A stretch of DNA of 64,000 nucleotides from Escherichia coli (GTDB lineage Bacteria > Pseudomonadota > Gammaproteobacteria > Enterobacterales > Enterobacteriaceae): the NCBI RefSeq assembly GCF_044647545.1, contig NZ_CP172818.1, one strand, 5' to 3'. The notes below the pieces were generated by a model. The model worked only from the letters and a program-made list of their open reading frames with translations, did not search any database and was not told the origin of the DNA. A program made the position numbers and the translations under genes. Shown here piece by piece: positions 2,270 to 18,647 of this stretch. How positions within the stretch are numbered: the first letter of the stretch is position 1; each line of letters opens with the position of its first letter.

Positions 2270-3487
2270 TGCCTTCCACGCCGATACGTTTCTTCACAGA
2301 CCAAAGTCATTTGCCTGTGAAACACTACAGCATTTAAATCCATTAGCCCGTGTCAAAGAGCGTGAAATGGCGCTTCCGGCGCATGTCGTTTCGTTTCAAT
2401 CTCTCTGGCACGTCAGAAGAGAATCATGAGCCGTAATAAATACATCCCTTACGGGAAAATGCTTCCTCTGTTGAGTGAAAAACGCCACGAAACCAATGCT
2501 AAAGATCGCCCTCACAGCCATTCAACACACTGAAAGACCTTGAGCGCTTAAAAAACTTCTCCAGAAGCCTGCTTTTCCCCGATCAAAAAGCGGGGACAGA
2601 AGATGCATTCGCTACCCGCAGGGCGTTAAGCTCGACAGGAAAACAGCCGTATTTTTCGCCGAAACTTGGCTGGATGCGCTACCGGAATAGCCGTCAGGTC
2701 ACGGGTGTGTGAAAAATGTCACTGTCAGCCAGTCCTGCGTAAGGTACATCAGTATCAGACTGAAAATGAAGTATCAACTCCGTTCACCCTTCAGCATCAA
2801 TGGTCGGCTGGAGCGCGGGCTAAACTCGCCACGCTGTCAGAGCAAGCTTTGACCTGAAACAGTTTTCAGAAAAACCAGAAGAAGCTGGCGAGACTTCAGC
2901 GACAGTTAAGCCGCAAGGTCAAATTCAGCAATAACTGGCAGAAGCAGAAACGCAAAATACAGCGACTGCATCCTGTACGCAAATATCCGCAGGGACTACC
3001 TTCACAAAGTCACAACGACCGTCAGCAAAAACCACGCAATGATAGTCATTGAGGATTTGAAGGTCAGCAACATGTCAAAGTCAGCAGCGGGTACGGTCAG
3101 CCAGCCGGGGCGCAATGTCCGGGCAAAATCAGGTTTAAACCGTTCGATACTGGATCAGGGCTGGTATGAAATGCGCCGCCAGCTTGAGTACAAGCACCTG
3201 GCGTGGCGGTCAGGTGCTTGCTGCCGCCAGCGTACACAAGCCAGCGTTGCGCGTGCTGTGGTCATACAGCGAAAGAAAATCGCCTGTCACAAAGTAAATT
3301 CAGATGCCAGCATGTGGATATACAGCGAACGCCGATGAAATGCCTCGTAACATTTTAGCGGCGGGGCACGCCGTTCTTGCCTGTGGAGAGATGGTGCATC
3401 AGCCGCTCGTTGAAGCAGGAACCCCCCGAAATGATTTAGCGACAGCCTGAACGTAGCAGGGATCCACGTCCTTCAGGGCGTGAGGAT
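2270..3487 (+). mobile_element. Partial IS200/IS605-family element (IS609-like) carrying only a decayed tnpB; no tnpA
   Basis: TnpB-like coding signal spread over three frames; putative right-end hairpin cacgtccttcagggcgtg at about 3465..3482, directly abutting the ydcO stop. Left boundary is uncertain. Confidence 0.6.
2520..3440 (+). pseudogene. insQ: tnpB (insQ-like) RNA-guided-nuclease-family accessory gene, disrupted by multiple frameshifts
   Basis: TnpB motifs are read in different forward frames: FNTLKDLERLKNF, IRYPQGVKLD, KLGWMRYRNSRQVTGV, QKNQKKLARLQRQLSRKVKFSNNWQKQKRKIQRLH, then ANIRRDYLHKVTTTVSKNHAMIVIEDLKVSNM (RuvC-like IVIEDL), then YTSQRCACCGHTAKENR and ACGYTANA...NILAAGHAVLACGEMV (Zn finger). 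No forward ORF over 100 aa exists here. Confidence 0.75.
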
Positions 3488-4663
3488 TCAATATCGGTTT
3501 CTGTCAGCGATTAAATTCAACACCACGTAACAAACGCCTCCGGCAATTAATCCCCAAAACGCAGAACCAATCCCGGCCAGCGTCAATCCACTTGCCGTTA
3601 CCAGAAATGCCACCACCGCCGCGTCGCGCTCACGCTCATTATGCAGCGCCTGATACAAACTGCCGCCAATGGTACTCAACAGCGCCAGACCTGCCAGCAT
3701 CTGGATCCAACTTACGGGCAGGGCAGCCATCATCCCGGTAATGGCACTACCAAACAGACCTGCGAGCAAATAGAAAATGCCTGCAACGGCAGCTGCCAGC
3801 CAACGTTGATCTTTATCCGGATGCGCTTCCGGGCTTTGGCAAATAGCCGCGGTGATTGCCGCAATACCGACGGAATAAACGCCGAAAGGGGAAAAAACCA
3901 GTGCCAGCAATCCAGTAAATACAATTAATGGCGAAACAGGAGCCGAATATCCGGCTGCTTTCATTGCTGCGATACCCGGTGCGTTTTGCGATGCCATCGT
4001 CACCAGAAAAAGGGGGAGTGCAACGCTCAGGCTGTGAGCAAACGAAAAATCAGGGCTAATATAAGTGGGGAGAACGGGTTTAAAGACAACATCAGTTGTG
4101 ACAACGTCACCTTGCGCGATAACGATCACGCCCCCAATAATCATCGCGGCAATTACCGCATAGCGCGGCGCAACGGCCCTGGTTGCCAGCCATACCAGCA
4201 ACATACTGCCACACAACGTAAATTGACCATCCAGGCTCGCAAACGCCTGTAAACCAAAGCGTAATAAAATCCCGGCAAGCATTGCCGCCGCAAGCGAGTG
4301 CGGAATAATGCGCATCAGACGAGCAAAGAGTCCCGTTATGCCGCAGAGGACTATTAACGCGTTGGTGACAATAAAAACGCCGATGGTTTCGTTAAGTGTT
4401 AGTCCCTGCAATCCGGTGACCAACAAAGCCGCGCCAGGCGTTGACCATGCGGTGAGAACAGGTACGCGATACCATAATGTCAGAGCCAGCGTACTGACGC
4501 CCATTGCCAGCCCCAGCGCCGTCATCCAGCCAGAGATTTGTGCAGTGGTGGCTCCGGCGACAATCGCTGCTTGCCAGATTATTGCCGCTGAACTGGCGTA
4601 GCCAATTAATACCGCCAGAAACCCCGCCAGTAGCGTGGGCGGAGGAATAGAAAACAGACGCAT
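3488..4663 (-). CDS. ydcO: BenE-family inner-membrane transporter YdcO
   Basis: ORF 3488..4786; start placed at the internal Met (MRLFSIPPP...) giving 391 aa; highly hydrophobic. Confidence 0.85.
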   Translation of the reverse strand: MRLFSIPPPTLLAGFLAVLIGYASSAAIIWQAAIVAGATTAQISGWMTALGLAMGVSTLALTLWYRVPVLTAWSTPGAALLVTGLQGLTLNETIGVFIVTNALIVLCGITGLFARLMRIIPHSLAAAMLAGILLRFGLQAFASLDGQFTLCGSMLLVWLATRAVAPRYAVIAAMIIGGVIVIAQGDVVTTDVVFKPVLPTYISPDFSFAHSLSVALPLFLVTMASQNAPGIAAMKAAGYSAPVSPLIVFTGLLALVFSPFGVYSVGIAAITAAICQSPEAHPDKDQRWLAAAVAGIFYLLAGLFGSAITGMMAALPVSWIQMLAGLALLSTIGGSLYQALHNERERDAAVVAFLVTASGLTLAGIGSAFWGLIAGGVCYVVLNLIADRNRY

Positions 4664-4754
4664 AGTCACCTCGTGCGTTATAGCATACAGGCACCGTAGC
4701 ATTTGTCCGTTATAACGCACAAGTGATAAACTTACGTTTTGCCGGAGGAGTCGC

Positions 4755-5291
4755 ATGGAAAATCTCGCTCGCTTTTTATCCACCACACTTAAACAACTAC
4801 GTCAGCAGCGCGGCTGGAGTCTTTCGCGACTGGCAGAAGCGACGGGCGTTTCTAAAGCGATGTTAGGGCAGATTGAGCGTAATGAATCCAGCCCGACGGT
4901 CGCGACATTATGGAAAATAGCCACCGGGTTGAACGTGCCATTTTCGACATTTATTTCTCCGCCGCAGTCCGCAACGCCTTCAGTTTATGATCCACAACAA
5001 CAGGCGATGGTGATCACTTCGCTGTTTCCTTATGATCCACAACTCTGCTTTGAACACTTCTCGATTCAGATGGCACCCGGTGCAATAAGCGAATCGACGC
5101 CCCATGAGAAGGGAGTAATCGAACATGTTGTCGTCATTGATGGGCAACTTGATCTGTGCGTTGATGGTGAATGGCAGAGCCTTAATTGTGGGGAAGGCGC
5201 TCGATTTGCTGCAGACGTCACGCATGTCTATTGTAATGGTGGGGAGCAAATCGTACATTTTCATTCCCTCATCCATTACCCACGCAGTTAA
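4755..5291 (+). CDS. ydcN: XRE-family HTH regulator with cupin domain, YdcN
   Basis: 178-aa ORF; HTH_XRE segment LRQQRGWSLSRLAEATGVSKAMLGQIERNESSPTVATLWKIA; divergent from ydcO. Confidence 0.9.
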   Translation: MENLARFLSTTLKQLRQQRGWSLSRLAEATGVSKAMLGQIERNESSPTVATLWKIATGLNVPFSTFISPPQSATPSVYDPQQQAMVITSLFPYDPQLCFEHFSIQMAPGAISESTPHEKGVIEHVVVIDGQLDLCVDGEWQSLNCGEGARFAADVTHVYCNGGEQIVHFHSLIHYPRS

Positions 5292-5363
5292 GCGGGAAAA
5301 CTATTTCGCAACGTCGCGCTTGTGGCTAAAATAGCCGCCATTTTTCAGCTACTGGATAAGAAT

Positions 5364-7325
5364 GTGACCGTATCTTCTCATCGACTTGAACTGTTAAGCC
5401 CGGCACGCGATGCCGCCATTGCCCGCGAAGCTATTTTGCACGGTGCCGATGCTGTTTATATCGGCGGCCCTGGTTTTGGTGCCCGTCATAATGCCAGTAA
5501 TAGCCTGAAAGATATTGCCGAGCTGGTGCCGTTTGCCCATCGTTATGGTGCAAAAATTTTCGTCACGCTTAACACAATTTTGCATGATGATGAGCTGGAA
5601 CCCGCGCAACGGCTGATTACTGACCTCTACCAGACCGGCGTCGATGCGCTGATTGTTCAGGATATGGGGATTCTGGAACTTGATATTCCGCCGATTGAAC
5701 TGCACGCCAGTACGCAGTGCGATATTCGCACAGTAGAAAAAGCGAAGTTCCTCTCTGATGTTGGCTTTACGCAGATTGTGCTGGCGCGAGAGCTGAATCT
5801 TGAGCAGATCCGCGCGATTCACCAGGCCACGGACGCGACCATTGAATTCTTTATTCATGGCGCACTGTGCGTGGCCTATTCGGGTCAGTGCTACATTTCT
5901 CATGCGCAAACAGGGCGTAGCGCCAACCGTGGCGATTGCTCGCAGGCGTGCCGTTTGCCATACACATTGAAAGACGATCAGGGGCGGGTGGTTTCCTATG
6001 AAAAACATCTGCTGTCGATGAAAGATAACGATCAGACTGCCAACCTCGGCGCGCTGATTGATGCTGGCGTACGCTCCTTCAAGATTGAAGGGCGTTACAA
6101 AGATATGAGCTACGTGAAGAATATCACCGCCCATTATCGCCAGATGCTGGATGCCATTATTGAAGAACGTGGCGATCTGACGCGTGCTTCATCAGGTCGT
6201 ACTGAACATTTCTTTGTTCCATCGACGGAAAAGACTTTCCACCGTGGTAGCACAGATTATTTTGTGAATGCCCGTAAAGGCGATATTGGCGCGTTCGATT
6301 CGCCGAAATTTATCGGCCTGCCGGTGGGCGAAGTATTGAAAGTAGCGAAAGATCATATTGATGTTGCCGTTACCGAGCCACTGGCAAATGGCGATGGCCT
6401 GAACGTGATGATTAAACGTGAAGTCGTCGGTTTTCGTGCCAATACGGTCGAGAAAACCGGAGAAAATCAGTACCGCGTCTGGCCCAATGAAATGCCAGCA
6501 GATTTGCACAAAATTCGCCCGCATCACCCACTAAACCGTAATCTTGATCATAACTGGCAGCAGGCACTGACAAAAACCTCCAGCGAACGTCGGGTGGCGG
6601 TAGACATTGAACTGGGCGGCTGGCAGGAACAACTGATTCTGACCCTCACCAGTGAAGAGGGTGTCAGCATCACGCATACGCTGGACGGGCAGTTCGACGA
6701 AGCCAATAACGCCGAAAAAGCAATGAACAATCTAAAGGATGGTCTGGCAAAACTGGGGCAAACCATCTATTACGCCCGCGATGTGCAAATTAATTTGCCG
6801 GGTGCGCTGTTTGTACCAAACAGTCTGTTAAACCAGTTCCGCCGTGAAGCCGCCGACATGCTGGATGCTGCACGTCTTGCCGGTTACCAGCGGGGCAGCC
6901 GTAAACCGGTTGCTGATCCTGCGCCGGTTTATCCGCAAACGCATCTGAGTTTCCTCGCGAACGTATACAACCAGAAAGCGCGTGAATTTTATCATCGCTA
7001 TGGTGTGCAACTGATTGACGCGGCGTATGAGGCACATGAAGAGAAGGGCGAAGTCCCGGTGATGATCACCAAGCATTGTCTGCGCTTTGCCTTCAATCTG
7101 TGCCCGAAACAGGCGAAAGGCAATATCAAAAGCTGGAAGGCGACGCCAATGCAACTGGTTAACGGCGATGAAGTATTAACGCTAAAGTTTGATTGCCGCC
7201 CATGCGAGATGCACGTCATTGGCAAAATCAAAAATCACATACTGAAAATGCCGTTACCGGGAAGCGTAGTGGCATCCGTAAGTCCGGATGATCTGCTGAA
7301 AACATTGCCGAAGCGAAAAGGGTAA
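5364..7325 (+). CDS. ydcP: Peptidase-U32-family protein YdcP (RlhA, 23S rRNA 5-hydroxycytidine synthase)
   Basis: ORF 5322..7325; GTG start at 5364 would give the 653-aa length I recall. Start is uncertain by 14 codons. Confidence 0.8.
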   Translation: MTVSSHRLELLSPARDAAIAREAILHGADAVYIGGPGFGARHNASNSLKDIAELVPFAHRYGAKIFVTLNTILHDDELEPAQRLITDLYQTGVDALIVQDMGILELDIPPIELHASTQCDIRTVEKAKFLSDVGFTQIVLARELNLEQIRAIHQATDATIEFFIHGALCVAYSGQCYISHAQTGRSANRGDCSQACRLPYTLKDDQGRVVSYEKHLLSMKDNDQTANLGALIDAGVRSFKIEGRYKDMSYVKNITAHYRQMLDAIIEERGDLTRASSGRTEHFFVPSTEKTFHRGSTDYFVNARKGDIGAFDSPKFIGLPVGEVLKVAKDHIDVAVTEPLANGDGLNVMIKREVVGFRANTVEKTGENQYRVWPNEMPADLHKIRPHHPLNRNLDHNWQQALTKTSSERRVAVDIELGGWQEQLILTLTSEEGVSITHTLDGQFDEANNAEKAMNNLKDGLAKLGQTIYYARDVQINLPGALFVPNSLLNQFRREAADMLDAARLAGYQRGSRKPVADPAPVYPQTHLSFLANVYNQKAREFYHRYGVQLIDAAYEAHEEKGEVPVMITKHCLRFAFNLCPKQAKGNIKSWKATPMQLVNGDEVLTLKFDCRPCEMHVIGKIKNHILKMPLPGSVVASVSPDDLLKTLPKRKG

Positions 7326-14160: not shown

Positions 14161-15585
14161 ATGCAACATAAGTTACTGATTAACGGAGAACTGGTTAGCG
14201 GCGAAGGGGAAAAACAGCCTGTCTATAATCCGGCAACGGGGGACGTTTTACTAGAGATTGCCGAGGCATCCGCAGAGCAGGTGGATGCTGCTGTTCGCGC
14301 GGCAGATGCAGCATTTGCCGAATGGGGGCAAACCACGCCGAAAGCGCGTGCGGAATGCCTGCTGAAACTGGCTGATGTTATCGAAGAAAATGGTCAGGTT
14401 TTTGCCGAACTGGAGTCCCGTAACTGTGGCAAACCGCTGCATAGTGCGTTCAATGATGAAATTCCGGCGATTGTCGATGTCTTTCGCTTTTTCGCCGGAG
14501 CAGCTCGCTGCCTGAATGGTCTGGCGGCAGGTGAATATCTTGAAGGTCATACTTCGATGATCCGTCGCGATCCGTTGGGAGTCGTGGCTTCTATCGCACC
14601 GTGGAATTATCCGCTGATGATGGCAGCGTGGAAACTGGCTCCGGCGCTGGCGGCAGGGAACTGCGTAGTGCTCAAACCATCAGAAATTACCCCGCTGACC
14701 GCGTTGAAGTTGGCAGAGCTGGCGAAAGATATCTTCCCGGCAGGCGTGATTAACGTACTGTTTGGCAGAGGCAAAACGGTGGGCGATCCGCTGACCGGAC
14801 ATCCCAAAGTGCGGATGGTGTCGCTGACGGGCTCTATCGCCACTGGGGAACACATCATCAGCCATACCGCGCCGTCCATTAAGCGTACTCATATGGAACT
14901 TGGTGGCAAAGCGCCAGTGATTGTTTTTGATGATGCGGATATTGAAGCTGTGGTCGAAGGTGTACGTACTTTTGGCTATTACAATGCCGGACAGGATTGT
15001 ACTGCGGCTTGTCGGCTCTACGCGCAAAAAGGCATTTACGATACGCTGGTGGAAAAACTCGGTGCTGCGGTGGCAACGTTAAAATCGGGTTCGCCGGATG
15101 ACGAGTCTACGGAGCTTGGACCTTTAAGCTCGCTGGCGCATCTCGAACGCGTCAGCAAGGCGGTAGAAGAGGCGAAAGCGACAGGGCACATCAAAGTGAT
15201 CACTGGCGGTGAAAAGCGCAAGGGTAATGGCTATTACTATGCGCCGACGCTGCTGGCTGGCGCATTACAGGACGATGCCATCGTGCAAAAAGAGGTATTT
15301 GGTCCGGTAGTGAGTGTTACGCTCTTCGACAACGAAGAACAGGTGGTGAATTGGGCAAATGACAGCCAGTACGGACTTGCATCCTCGGTATGGACGAAAG
15401 ATGTGGGCAGGGCGCATCGCGTCAGCGCGCGGCTGCAATATGGTTGTACCTGGGTCAATACCCATTTCATGCTGGTAAGTGAAATGCCGCACGGTGGGCA
15501 GAAACTTTCTGGTTACGGCAAGGATATGTCACTTTATGGGCTGGAGGATTACACCGTCGTCCGCCACGTCATGGTTAAACATTAA
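14161..15585 (+). CDS. patD: Gamma-aminobutyraldehyde dehydrogenase PatD (YdcW/Prr)
   Basis: 474 aa; aldehyde-dehydrogenase motifs MELGGKAP and catalytic Cys region GQDCTAAC. Confidence 0.93.
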
Positions 15586-15632
15586 GGGTAATATTGCAGA
15601 TCGTAAGAGTATGAGATGATCTTGCGTACTGT

Positions 15633-15663
15633 CAGAGCACTGATTTCTCTGACAGTACGTGCT
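15633..15663. terminator. Intergenic hairpin between convergent patD and yncL
   Basis: Inverted repeat gtactgtcagag ... ctctgacagtac. Confidence 0.4.
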
Positions 15664-15681
15664 GCGTGCAAAATCACTACA

Positions 15682-15777
15682 TCAAATAAACCAGCCAAAT
15701 CTCATAGAGATAAGAGTAAACAAACCAACAGCAGCAAAGACATTTATCAGTACTACAGTTCTACTGGAAACATTCAT
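15682..15777 (-). CDS. yncL: Small membrane protein YncL (31 aa)
   Basis: Hand-translated minus-strand ORF MNVSSRTVVLINVFAAVGLFTLISMRFGWFI; below the track's length cut-off. Confidence 0.7.
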   Translation of the reverse strand: MNVSSRTVVLINVFAAVGLFTLISMRFGWFI

Positions 15778-15971
15778 TTTTGCCACCTTTTATCATTGCC
15801 CCTATGTGTATAGTACGGGTTAAGAAAATCCGCAATAATACTCATTCTGAAGATGGATAAGGACAAGTTGCTGTTTGATGATTTTTTCTCAAACTGGTGA
15901 AAAAATTTGATGCACGTCAAAAAATGACGCATATTTGCGCGCGTTTTATTCATCTGGCTGGACGCCCGTAC

Positions 15972-16145
15972 ATGTCTCTCTATCAACACATGCTTGTTTT
16001 TTATGCGGTTATGGCAGCAATCGCATTTCTTATCACCTGGTTTCTTTCTCACGATAAGAAACGCATCCGTTTCTTAAGCGCCTTTCTGGTGGGGGCAACA
16101 TGGCCGATGAGTTTCCCGGTGGCGCTGTTGTTTTCACTGTTTTAA
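15972..16145 (+). CDS. ortT: Orphan membrane toxin OrtT (YdcX), 57 aa
   Basis: Track ORF 15897..16145; internal start MSLYQHMLVFYAVMAAIAFLITWFLSHDKKRIRFLSAFLVGATWPMSFPVALLFSLF gives 57 aa with two TM helices. Confidence 0.8.
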   Translation: MSLYQHMLVFYAVMAAIAFLITWFLSHDKKRIRFLSAFLVGATWPMSFPVALLFSLF

Positions 16146-16230
16146 ATCTTACTCACTGGCTTGACGGCACCACGCAGACTTATATCATTTGGATGAATCG
16201 ATAAATTTCACAAGTGGCTAAGGAGAAAGT

Positions 16231-16464
16231 ATGTCGCATCTGGATGAAGTCATCGCGCGCGTGGATGCCGCGATTGAAGAGAGCGTCATTGCCCATATGA
16301 ACGAATTATTAATCGCCCTGAGCGATGACGCGGAGTTAAGTCGGGAAGATCGCTACACCCAGCAGCAGCGTTTGCGCACAGCGATCGCCCATCACGGTCG
16401 CAAGCATAAAGAAGATATGGAAGCGCGCCATGAACAGTTAACCAAAGGCGGCACCATCCTGTGA
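16231..16464 (+). CDS. ydcY: Uncharacterised protein YdcY
   Basis: 77-aa ORF. Confidence 0.8.
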   Translation: MSHLDEVIARVDAAIEESVIAHMNELLIALSDDAELSREDRYTQQQRLRTAIAHHGRKHKEDMEARHEQLTKGGTIL

Positions 16465-16914
16465 TTAAAATGAGCGTCTGGCTACCAACCAGGCGCCAAC
16501 CACAAGTAAAATTGCGCCACAAATTGGGCCGAACAACGCCCGTAGTGGTACGCCATGACTGCGAAAGATATCCAGCACCAGACCGCCAATCAGCTGGCTG
16601 GCGACCAGTACTGCAATAGTTGTCGCCGCTCCCACATTCTGATATCCGCTGATACTGGCGAAGACAAAAAACGATCCCAGCAAGCCAGGTATAAGTGTCC
16701 ACCAGCGCACGCTGGACACCAGTTCGCCAAACCCCGCCATACCTTGTTTAAACCATAAAATAGAAACAAAGAGCACAATCCCCACCAGTGAGTTCAGCAA
16801 CATGGCGATGAGAATGGTAGAGGAGGTCTGGGTGATGCGCACCATCAGCGTGTTCTGGACTACCAGACCAATTCCGGCGGCAATCAAAAAAGCAAGGGTG
16901 AGCGACTGATTCAT
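16465..16914 (-). CDS. ydcZ: Inner-membrane protein YdcZ (DUF606)
   Basis: 149-aa hydrophobic ORF; overlaps the mnaT stop by 4 nt. Confidence 0.85.
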   Translation of the reverse strand: MNQSLTLAFLIAAGIGLVVQNTLMVRITQTSSTILIAMLLNSLVGIVLFVSILWFKQGMAGFGELVSSVRWWTLIPGLLGSFFVFASISGYQNVGAATTIAVLVASQLIGGLVLDIFRSHGVPLRALFGPICGAILLVVGAWLVARRSF

Positions 16915-17429
16915 CCAATCGCGTCCGGTTCAGTGCGCTCGTCGAGTTGCAACTGCATAAATGTCAGATCCAGCCAGCGCCCAAATTTAGTGCCCACCTG
17001 CGGCATTTGTGCGGTGATGACAAATCCCAGCGACTGGTGGAGATGCAGCGAAGCCTGATTTTGCGATTCGATCCCGGCGACCATGACATGCTTCCCGCAA
17101 TCCCGCGCTTCATCAATCAATCGGCTTAACAATTTACGCCCCAGACCTTTGCCCTGATGATCGGGATGGACATAAACCGAATGTTCCACGGTATGGCGAA
17201 AACCATCGAAACTACGCCAGTCGCCAAACGAGGCATATCCCGTCACTACGCCATCTTGTTCACTTACCAGCACTGGATAACCAGCTAAAGTCCGCGCTTC
17301 AAACCAGGCAATGCGATTATCTGCATCCACCGTTTGGTCATTCCAGATAGCCGCCGTATACAACACGGCGTGGTTATAAATTTCCGCAATGGCAGCACAG
17401 TCGGCTTTGCGGGCAAAACGGATGGACAT
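16911..17429 (-). CDS. mnaT: GNAT-family L-amino acid N-acyltransferase MnaT (YncA)
   Basis: Track ORF 16911..17663; internal start MSIRFARKADCAAIAEIYN gives 172 aa; GNAT motif QGKGLGRKLL. Confidence 0.88.
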   Translation of the reverse strand: MSIRFARKADCAAIAEIYNHAVLYTAAIWNDQTVDADNRIAWFEARTLAGYPVLVSEQDGVVTGYASFGDWRSFDGFRHTVEHSVYVHPDHQGKGLGRKLLSRLIDEARDCGKHVMVAGIESQNQASLHLHQSLGFVITAQMPQVGTKFGRWLDLTFMQLQLDERTEPDAIG

Positions 17430-17609
17430 GTTTGGCCTCAATAAAATAATGATGATGACGTTATCAATACTATCGAAAACAGCCCGAAGCAACGGATTCC
17501 TCGATGAAATTATTGCGTGTTGCAGAGGGGATGTGACGGCTGCAAACAAAACCATTCCTGCGAGCCTGCTACTATTGATGGATTCATGCCAAAAGCACAG
17601 GAGAGCATT

Positions 17610-18647
17610 ATGGGGCAACAAAAGCAGCGTAACCGCCGTTGGGTTCTGGCCTCGCGTCCGCATGGCGCGCCGGTTCCGGAGAATTTCCGTCTTGAAGAAG
17701 ATGATGTCGCCACACCGGGTGAAGGACAGGTGTTACTGCGCACAGTTTATTTGTCCCTGGACCCGTATATGCGTGGACGTATGAGCGATGAGCCATCTTA
17801 TTCACCGCCTGTTGATATTGGCGGCGTTATGGTCGGCGGCACGGTGAGCCGTGTCGTGGAGTCGAATCATCCTGATTATCAGCCTGGCGACTGGGTACTG
17901 GGCTACAGTGGATGGCAGGACTATGACATATCCAGTGGTGATGAACTGGTGAAACTTGGCGATCATCCGCAAAATCCATCGTGGTCGCTGGGTGTGCTGG
18001 GGATGCCAGGCTTTACTGCTTATATGGGCCTACTGGATATCGGTCAGCCTAAAGAGGGCGAAACGCTGGTGGTTGCGGCGGCGACAGGACCAGTAGGGGC
18101 GACGGTGGGGCAAATCGGCAAACTTAAAGGTTGCAGAGTGGTGGGGGTAGCCGGTGGCGCGGAAAAATGCCGCCATGCTACCGAGGTGTTAGGCTTCGAT
18201 GTTTGCCTTGATCACCACGCGGACGATTTTGCCGAACAACTGGCGAAAGCGTGCCCAAAAGGTATTGATATCTATTATGAAAACGTGGGCGGTAAGGTAT
18301 TTGATGCAGTGCTACCATTACTTAATACATCTGCGCGCATTCCCGTTTGTGGCTTAGTGAGCAGCTATAACGATACAGAGCTACCACCCGGTCCGGATCG
18401 TTTACCCCTGTTGATGGCAACGGTGCTGAAAAAACGCATTCGCTTGCAAGGGTTTATTATTAGTCAGGATTATGGTCACCGCATCCATGAGTTTCAGCAA
18501 GAGATGGGGCAGTGGGTAAAAGAGGGAAAAATTCACTATCGTGAACAAGTTACCAACGGTTTGGAGAACGCCCCACAGACGTTTATTGGCCTGCTGAACG
18601 GCAAAAACTTCGGTAAAGTTGTTATTCGCGTCGCGGGTGATGACTAA
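17610..18647 (+). CDS. curA: NADPH-dependent curcumin/dihydrocurcumin reductase CurA (YncB)
   Basis: Track ORF 17517..18647; start at MGQQKQRNRRW (GGAGA RBS 6 nt upstream) gives 345 aa; nucleotide-binding motif AAATGPVGATVGQ. Confidence 0.9.
   Translation: MGQQKQRNRRWVLASRPHGAPVPENFRLEEDDVATPGEGQVLLRTVYLSLDPYMRGRMSDEPSYSPPVDIGGVMVGGTVSRVVESNHPDYQPGDWVLGYSGWQDYDISSGDELVKLGDHPQNPSWSLGVLGMPGFTAYMGLLDIGQPKEGETLVVAAATGPVGATVGQIGKLKGCRVVGVAGGAEKCRHATEVLGFDVCLDHHADDFAEQLAKACPKGIDIYYENVGGKVFDAVLPLLNTSARIPVCGLVSSYNDTELPPGPDRLPLLMATVLKKRIRLQGFIISQDYGHRIHEFQQEMGQWVKEGKIHYREQVTNGLENAPQTFIGLLNGKNFGKVVIRVAGDD

Follow-up and report, generated by a model that had tools for sequence, protein, structure and literature searches.

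Between patD and ydcY the E. coli chromosome carries two very short protein-coding genes, yncL and ortT (ydcX), which point away from each other. The DNA analysed here, hereafter the window, is a 64-kb stretch from E. coli. In its interval 15300-16500 an aldehyde dehydrogenase gene comes to its end, and after it stand an ATG-initiated ORF of 31 codons on the minus strand and an ATG-initiated ORF of 57 codons on the plus strand. In strains that are 100% identical to the window over 15500-16500, the RefSeq coding sequences are yncL at 15682-15777 (minus strand) and ortT at 15972-16145 (plus strand). K-12 MG1655 has the same gene order (patD-yncL-ortT-ydcY) and differs at 4 nucleotides in the 386 bp that run from the patD stop to the ortT start. 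Further along, after ydcY, the identical strain has ydcZ, mnaT and curA in RefSeq. The features of the interval are, in order of position:

14161-15585, plus strand: patD (RefSeq, identical strain), with its stop at 15585.
15625-15637 and 15647-15659, both strands: inverted repeat with a perfect 13-bp stem and a 9-nt loop, lying between the stops of the convergent genes patD (15585) and yncL (15682).
15682-15777, minus strand: yncL CDS, ATG start, 31 codons plus stop (MNVSSRTVVLINVFAAVGLFTLISMRFGWFI); stress response membrane protein YncL, an inner-membrane peptide with a single TM helix.
15783-15788, minus strand: yncL Shine-Dalgarno AGGTGG, strong, separated by 5 nt from the ATG; 27 distinct upstream sequences keep it as AAAGGTGGCAAAAATG.
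15807-15835, minus strand: predicted yncL promoter, with -35 TTGCGG (15830-15835), a 17-nt spacer, -10 TATACA (15807-15812) and a C at 15813.
15907-15920, plus strand: FNR box TTGATGCACGTCAA, 14 bp, 9 of 10 matches to TTGAT-N4-ATCAA, overlapping the candidate ortT -35 hexamer.
15930-15935, plus strand: candidate ortT -10 CATATT, 17 nt after TTGATG and followed by the G+C-rich GCGCGCG (15937-15943).
15972-16145, plus strand: ortT (ydcX) CDS, ATG start, 57 codons plus stop; a two-helix membrane-damaging peptide of the GhoT/OrtT family.
16231-16464, plus strand: ydcY (DUF2526), the downstream neighbour of ortT, given as context and not as a partner.

The initial annotation, made from the sequence alone, had named both peptides, and its identities (YncL, 31 aa; OrtT, 57 aa), coordinates and hand translations agree with RefSeq, with NCBIfam NF000537 and with Pfam PF10753. 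Its description of the genes as back to back was wrong: they are divergent, head to head, with 194 bp between the two facing start codons. We read the interval as two independent, divergently transcribed, known genes for small inner-membrane proteins (probability about 0.93). Both are already known and already studied in E. coli, so that the observation itself is nothing new, and its worth as a discovery is small. RefSeq and EcoCyc-style annotation include both genes, and papers have been devoted to them. What the analysis offers is quality control: the hand translation is accurate, a 65-aa ORF antisense to yncL can be discarded, and of the ortT starts it is the 57-aa one that is conserved.

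The interval is nearly universal in the species, and its presence there, the family scores and the pN/pS values put both ORFs far beyond what chance would give. By megablast, 15500-16500 was found in 5415 of 5426 complete E. coli genomes, many of the matches being 100% identical. Among the 6588 places in E. coli genomes that match this segment, eight are plasmid-borne, and one paper reports that a Pantoea plasmid carries a ydcX which matters when the host has to survive in contaminated groundwater (PMC11467524); on occasion, then, ortT is mobile. A separate annotation point concerns mnaT (minus strand), for which the mechanical ORF list has 250 aa (16911-17663) and RefSeq 172 aa (16911-17429); the longer form was rejected as an upstream over-extension.

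YncL matches the NCBIfam equivalog model NF000537 with 72.5 bits (cut-off 35), its residues 1-30 aligning with positions 1-30 of the 30-position profile. It is identical to the K-12 protein at 30 of 31 residues, the sole change being the conservative F13V. Codon 13 (15739-15741) thus encodes Val here and Phe in K-12, and because relatives carry V, L, I or F at this site, position 13 is freely hydrophobic. Hydropathy analysis gives one hydrophobic segment (residues 7-24), in line with the earlier claim of a single-helix peptide encoded on the opposite strand. Purifying selection is evident from a pN/pS of 0.203 (28 distinct coding sequences, pooled against the window), and the length of 31 codons is kept in 27 of the 28 loci. 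Upstream, 27 distinct sequences have in common the block TATTGCGGAT-N-CCGTACTATAC(A/C)CAT...AAAGGTGGCAAAAATG. A C at -13, directly before the -10 hexamer (here CTATACA), is a signature of sigma-S promoters. The yncL promoter is thus predicted to be of the sigma-S type, in agreement with the Salmonella orthologue STnc1110/STM14_1932, which depends on sigma-S (PMC5437024).

Is yncL a gene for a peptide, or mainly a non-coding small RNA whose 31-codon ORF is incidental? The Salmonella gene was first catalogued as a small RNA, STnc1110, and flag-tagged YncL was not detected there, only a lacZ fusion being expressed (PMC5437024). Interactome data also show yncL RNA paired with two small RNAs, RprA and KilS, but such contacts are compatible with yncL being an mRNA target. 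That lacZ fusion was moreover a translational one (PMC5437024), and in E. coli Hemm et al. (2008, 2010), as cited in PMC12542507, detected the protein and determined its location. The low pN/pS (0.20), the fixed number of codons, the strong and conserved Shine-Dalgarno and the passing of the equivalog model all speak for translation as well, and we regard a mainly non-coding yncL as very improbable.

As a peptide, YncL has been characterized by others. Minimal medium, heat and stationary phase all induce it, and its production causes partial membrane depolarisation and nucleoid condensation (PMC12542507); the RseP protease cleaves it in vivo (PMC10470546). Most of the published phenotypes of YncL, like those of OrtT, come from plasmid expression.

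The 65-aa plus-strand ORF (15616-15813) that lies antisense to yncL was rejected as a gene, as the initial annotation had proposed in calling it an artefact. It has no match in Pfam or NCBIfam, its in-frame pN/pS is 1.03, and stop codons interrupt it in 8 of 28 relatives.

The inverted repeat at 15625-15659, which had been described as a hairpin common to yncL and patD, is real and conserved. Its predicted folding energy is -22.9 to -23.8 kcal/mol (z-score -2.8 for the plus strand, -4.0 for the minus). The sequence of the stem varies among Escherichia, Citrobacter and Salmonella while pairing is kept, with compensatory double changes at four of the ten consensus pairs. The hairpin is likely to be a 3'-end element common to patD and yncL. 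No U-tract adjoins it on either strand, and patD-yncL is among the convergent pairs whose transcripts overlap (PMC12288877); for these two reasons its function may be to stabilise 3' ends or to terminate transcription weakly in both directions. Terminator and promoter scanners were of no help, either at the hairpin or within the intergenic region, their counts being at the level of shuffled sequence. At the same position, the Enterobacteriaceae bacterium RIT691 (locus L065) has a canonical bidirectional terminator (A7-GCAGCC...GGCTGC-T7).

To place ortT in a wider context we assembled 80 ortT loci from one-genome-per-species contigs of about 15 genera (Escherichia, Citrobacter, Salmonella, Enterobacter, Kosakonia, Lelliottia, Leclercia, Phytobacter, Pantoea, Cedecea, Buttiauxella and others), which with the window make 81 sequences. 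YncL relatives were sought in the same loci by local tblastn and by ORF search. Among the 80 loci, yncL adjoins ortT only in Escherichia, Citrobacter, Salmonella, Intestinirhabdus and one other lineage. The last is the RIT691 locus, where a diverged YncL-like ORF of 30 aa (MEVSSKTVLLINVCAAVALISLLSFRYGLI; L065:2725-2817, minus strand) is found 183 bp upstream of ortT; no other yncL in the sample falls outside the Escherichia-Citrobacter-Salmonella-Intestinirhabdus group.

OrtT matches Pfam PF10753 (Toxin_GhoT_OrtT) with 96.9 bits (cut-off 22.1), residues 4-57 covering profile positions 1-55 of 55, and its amino acids are identical to those of K-12 OrtT. The view of OrtT as a two-helix membrane peptide holds: hydropathy gives two hydrophobic segments (approximately 6-27 and 34-57) with the basic loop HDKKRIR between them, and an AlphaFold model built on a 10-sequence alignment has helices at 3-27 and 29-56 with a mean pLDDT of 76. 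A sequence search of the PDB found no solved relative of OrtT, and YncL, OrtT and YdcY had no match among the PADLOC defence models.

The gene is under purifying selection (pN/pS 0.158, pooled against the window over 81 distinct coding sequences), and neither the position of the ATG nor the length of 57 codons varies among the 81 sequences. The reading frame ahead of this ATG is not conserved. It is open for 0 to 64 codons, depending on the relative, and the database versions of 77-97 aa are for this reason over-extensions. Likewise rejected was an 82-aa GTG-initiated form (15897-16145), the upstream extension being variable (0-64 codons) and lacking a Shine-Dalgarno. The Shine-Dalgarno of the conserved start is itself weak (GGA, 15960-15962, 9 nt upstream), and this weakness is common to other genera. 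No common 5'-UTR structure that would hide the ortT start codon was seen in six genera. A perfect 9-bp hairpin inside ortT (16055-16076) was also considered and set aside, all nine pairs being present in only 3 of 81 sequences.

When OrtT is produced, the inner membrane is damaged, ATP drops, cells lyse, growth slows and persistence increases; this work included a construct with a mutated start codon (PMC4344625). The ortT mRNA rises 89-fold with serine hydroxamate, 4.6-fold with mupirocin, 3.1-fold with trimethoprim and 2-fold with heat, an induction that Islam et al. attributed to predicted sigma-E and sigma-H promoters (PMC4344625).

In a type V system such as GhoT/GhoS, the adjacent gene encodes a GhoS-type antitoxin, an endoribonuclease that cleaves the toxin mRNA. 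The earlier statement that no antitoxin ORF lies beside ortT stands. No GhoS homologue was found in the 64-kb window (best E = 1.1), nor within 3 kb of ortT in the 80 other genomes. Clustering all ORFs that flank ortT across the approximately 15 genera revealed no conserved partner gene. Outside Escherichia (loci L004-L082, locus positions approximately 3200-5400) the downstream neighbour of ortT is a gene other than ydcY. The series ydcY, ydcZ, mnaT follows ortT only in Escherichia; in 51 loci the downstream neighbour is a convergent gene for a Virul_Fac protein (PF10139) of approximately 716 aa, and in 30 loci an alpha/beta hydrolase gene lies downstream. Since the downstream neighbours thus differ by genus and yncL lies upstream in few lineages, no gene at its flanks accompanies ortT. 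Published neutralisation experiments point the same way: neither YdcY, GhoS, flanking intergenic RNA nor a genomic library neutralised OrtT (PMC4344625). The orphan status of OrtT holds across about 15 genera.

An antitoxin could also be an RNA. OrtT is small and hydrophobic, as type I toxins are, and the conserved weakness of its Shine-Dalgarno would suit a toxin held in check by an undiscovered antisense or trans-acting small RNA; a search for an antisense RNA had indeed been suggested in the initial annotation. Against such an RNA stand the short intergenic distances on the two sides of ortT (194 and 85 bp). No Rfam family matched 14500-17500 at E<=1, the only non-coding block near ortT that is conserved across genera is that of its promoter, the 5' UTR has no conserved fold and the hairpin within the coding sequence is not conserved. 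Together with the failure of flanking RNA and of the genomic library to neutralise OrtT (PMC4344625), the lack of an Rfam match and of any further conserved block or structure makes a hidden RNA antitoxin unlikely, although a trans-encoded RNA could escape sequence analysis of this kind. The experiments that had been proposed (tagging of YncL, toxicity assays of OrtT and a search for an antisense RNA) are in fact already in the literature, and the published RNA and antitoxin searches were negative (PMC4344625, PMC12542507, PMC5437024).

There remains the gene on the other side of the promoter region. Do yncL and ortT form a functional module, in which YncL, or a transcript of the 194-bp region, modulates or neutralises OrtT? 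In every locus that has the two genes the distance between them stays constant (183-197 bp), a single region bound by FNR and IHF lies between them (PMC3688515), and the two products have much in common, both depolarising or damaging the inner membrane and both being induced by stress (PMC4344625, PMC12542507). The 'UTR' construct of Islam et al. (primer UTR-F), moreover, began inside the first codons of yncL and so did not contain the whole ORF (PMC4344625). In most genera sampled, however, ortT occurs without yncL, for example in Enterobacter, Kosakonia, Lelliottia, Leclercia, Phytobacter and Pantoea, and this makes such a module unlikely; in the genera without yncL the FNR box remains with ortT. 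On the experimental side, a genomic library of approximately 3-fold coverage yielded no suppressor, and RNA from the intergenic region left toxicity unreduced (PMC4344625). We accordingly give the module only a slight chance. The two genes are more probably independent units that are neighbours by chance in one clade.

The region upstream of ortT is conserved well beyond that clade. In an alignment of 110 nt from 80 distinct sequences, the block AAACTTGAT-N4-(A/G)TCAA-N9-GCATATTGCGCGCG is conserved at 90% or more in all genera, as is GCATA-TTGCGCGCG around the candidate -10 (at least 90%, 80 distinct upstream sequences). The first part of this block contains the FNR box, TTGAT-N4-ATCAA being the FNR consensus. 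A single match to such a motif is not above chance, since 5 near-matches were found in 64 kb against 2.9 expected, whereas its position relative to ortT is another matter: TTGATNNNNRTCA lies at the same distance from ortT in 77 of the 80 related loci, which is above chance. Because the box stays with ortT in genera that have no yncL, it belongs to ortT. A further candidate, TTGATAGGAGTCA, which fits TTGAT-N4-RTCA and lies directly before the ghoS start of K-12 (L002:3568-3580), overlaps the ghoS Shine-Dalgarno and was discarded as probably due to chance.

Binding of FNR at the ortT promoter is itself already known from ChIP. A ChIP-chip study of 2007 listed ydcX as a target with exactly the sequence at 15907-15920 (PMC1802558), and a ChIP-seq study of 2013 found a strong yncL/ydcX peak with the motif TTGATGCACGTCAA as well as an IHF peak (PMC3688515 Tables S5, S6, S9). 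What is added here is the conservation of the box across genera, its association with ortT and the two geometries that it could have. The assignment of the ortT promoter hexamers is a prediction. If CATATT is the -10, the centre of the box falls near -28.5, where it overlaps the -35 and the core promoter, as a repressor site would. If instead the less conserved TTTTAT (15944-15949) is the -10, the centre falls near -42.5, as in class II activation. Despite the strong peak, neither ortT nor yncL showed an expression change that depended on FNR when Myers et al. used glucose minimal medium (PMC3688515 Table S9). In strain CFT073, anaerobic RNA-seq with nitrate/NO showed ydcX up 11.85-fold, and that study screened ydcX as one of the candidate genes for an NO-scavenging activity that is under negative influence of FNR (PMC5320621). 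The CFT073 data lean towards repression by FNR rather than activation, without proving it.

From these elements a working scheme can be put forward in which the two genes would be controlled separately. On the yncL side, a sigma-S-type promoter and a strong ribosome-binding site would drive synthesis of the single-helix peptide of 31 residues from a transcript that would end near the conserved hairpin common to the convergent patD; the peptide, once made, partly dissipates the membrane potential (PMC12542507). OrtT, on the other side, damages the inner membrane, lowers ATP and slows growth (PMC4344625) with no antitoxin to oppose it, and would be checked at the level of expression, by the conserved FNR-bound box and the weak ribosome-binding site, so that induction would occur only under stress (stringent response, heat). 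OrtT is thus probably silenced by promoter control and weak translation initiation and not by an antitoxin. In this scheme the identity and family of the genes, their purifying selection, the lack of a conserved partner and the conservation of hairpin and promoter are observations of the present analysis; translation, toxicity, depolarisation and FNR binding are taken from the papers cited.

More speculatively, OrtT may need no antitoxin because it is gated by the sensing of oxygen and nitric oxide. If CATATT is the -10, FNR would repress ortT under anoxia and the weak ribosome-binding site would limit leakage, while loss of FNR activity on exposure to O2 or NO, together with stringent or heat signals, would release the membrane-depolarising peptide. 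FNR binding is published; the repression, the promoter geometry and the physiological link are hypothetical, and we hold the proposal as a whole to be tentative, with the odds against it. The conservation of the FNR box across genera nevertheless makes it a concrete and cheap hypothesis for how a toxin without an antitoxin is silenced.

Compared with known systems, the ortT of the window is the orphan toxin gene ortT (ydcX) of K-12 (Islam, Benedik and Wood 2015, PMC4344625) in another E. coli strain, with no substantive difference. Judged by its sequence, OrtT is a paralogue of GhoT, the toxin of the type V GhoT/GhoS system. Both proteins have 57 aa and belong to PF10753, with 63% identity between OrtT and K-12 GhoT, and they have in common two hydrophobic helices, a basic loop and the conserved C-terminal motif TWPMS(F/L)PVALLFSLF. 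The genetic arrangement is different: ghoT lies directly downstream of ghoS in one operon, whereas none of the 81 ortT loci has a ghoS homologue nearby, and GhoS does not neutralise OrtT (PMC4344625). The adjacent GhoS-type endoribonuclease antitoxin that defines a type V system is thus absent at ortT. The yncL of the window is the same gene, at the same position, as yncL of K-12, from which its product differs by one residue, and as STnc1110 (STM14_1932) of Salmonella. YncL also resembles YohP and other stress-induced single-helix small membrane proteins in its size and single helix, in induction by stationary phase or stress, and in depolarisation of the membrane when produced (PMC12542507), a likeness that is drawn as a functional analogy.
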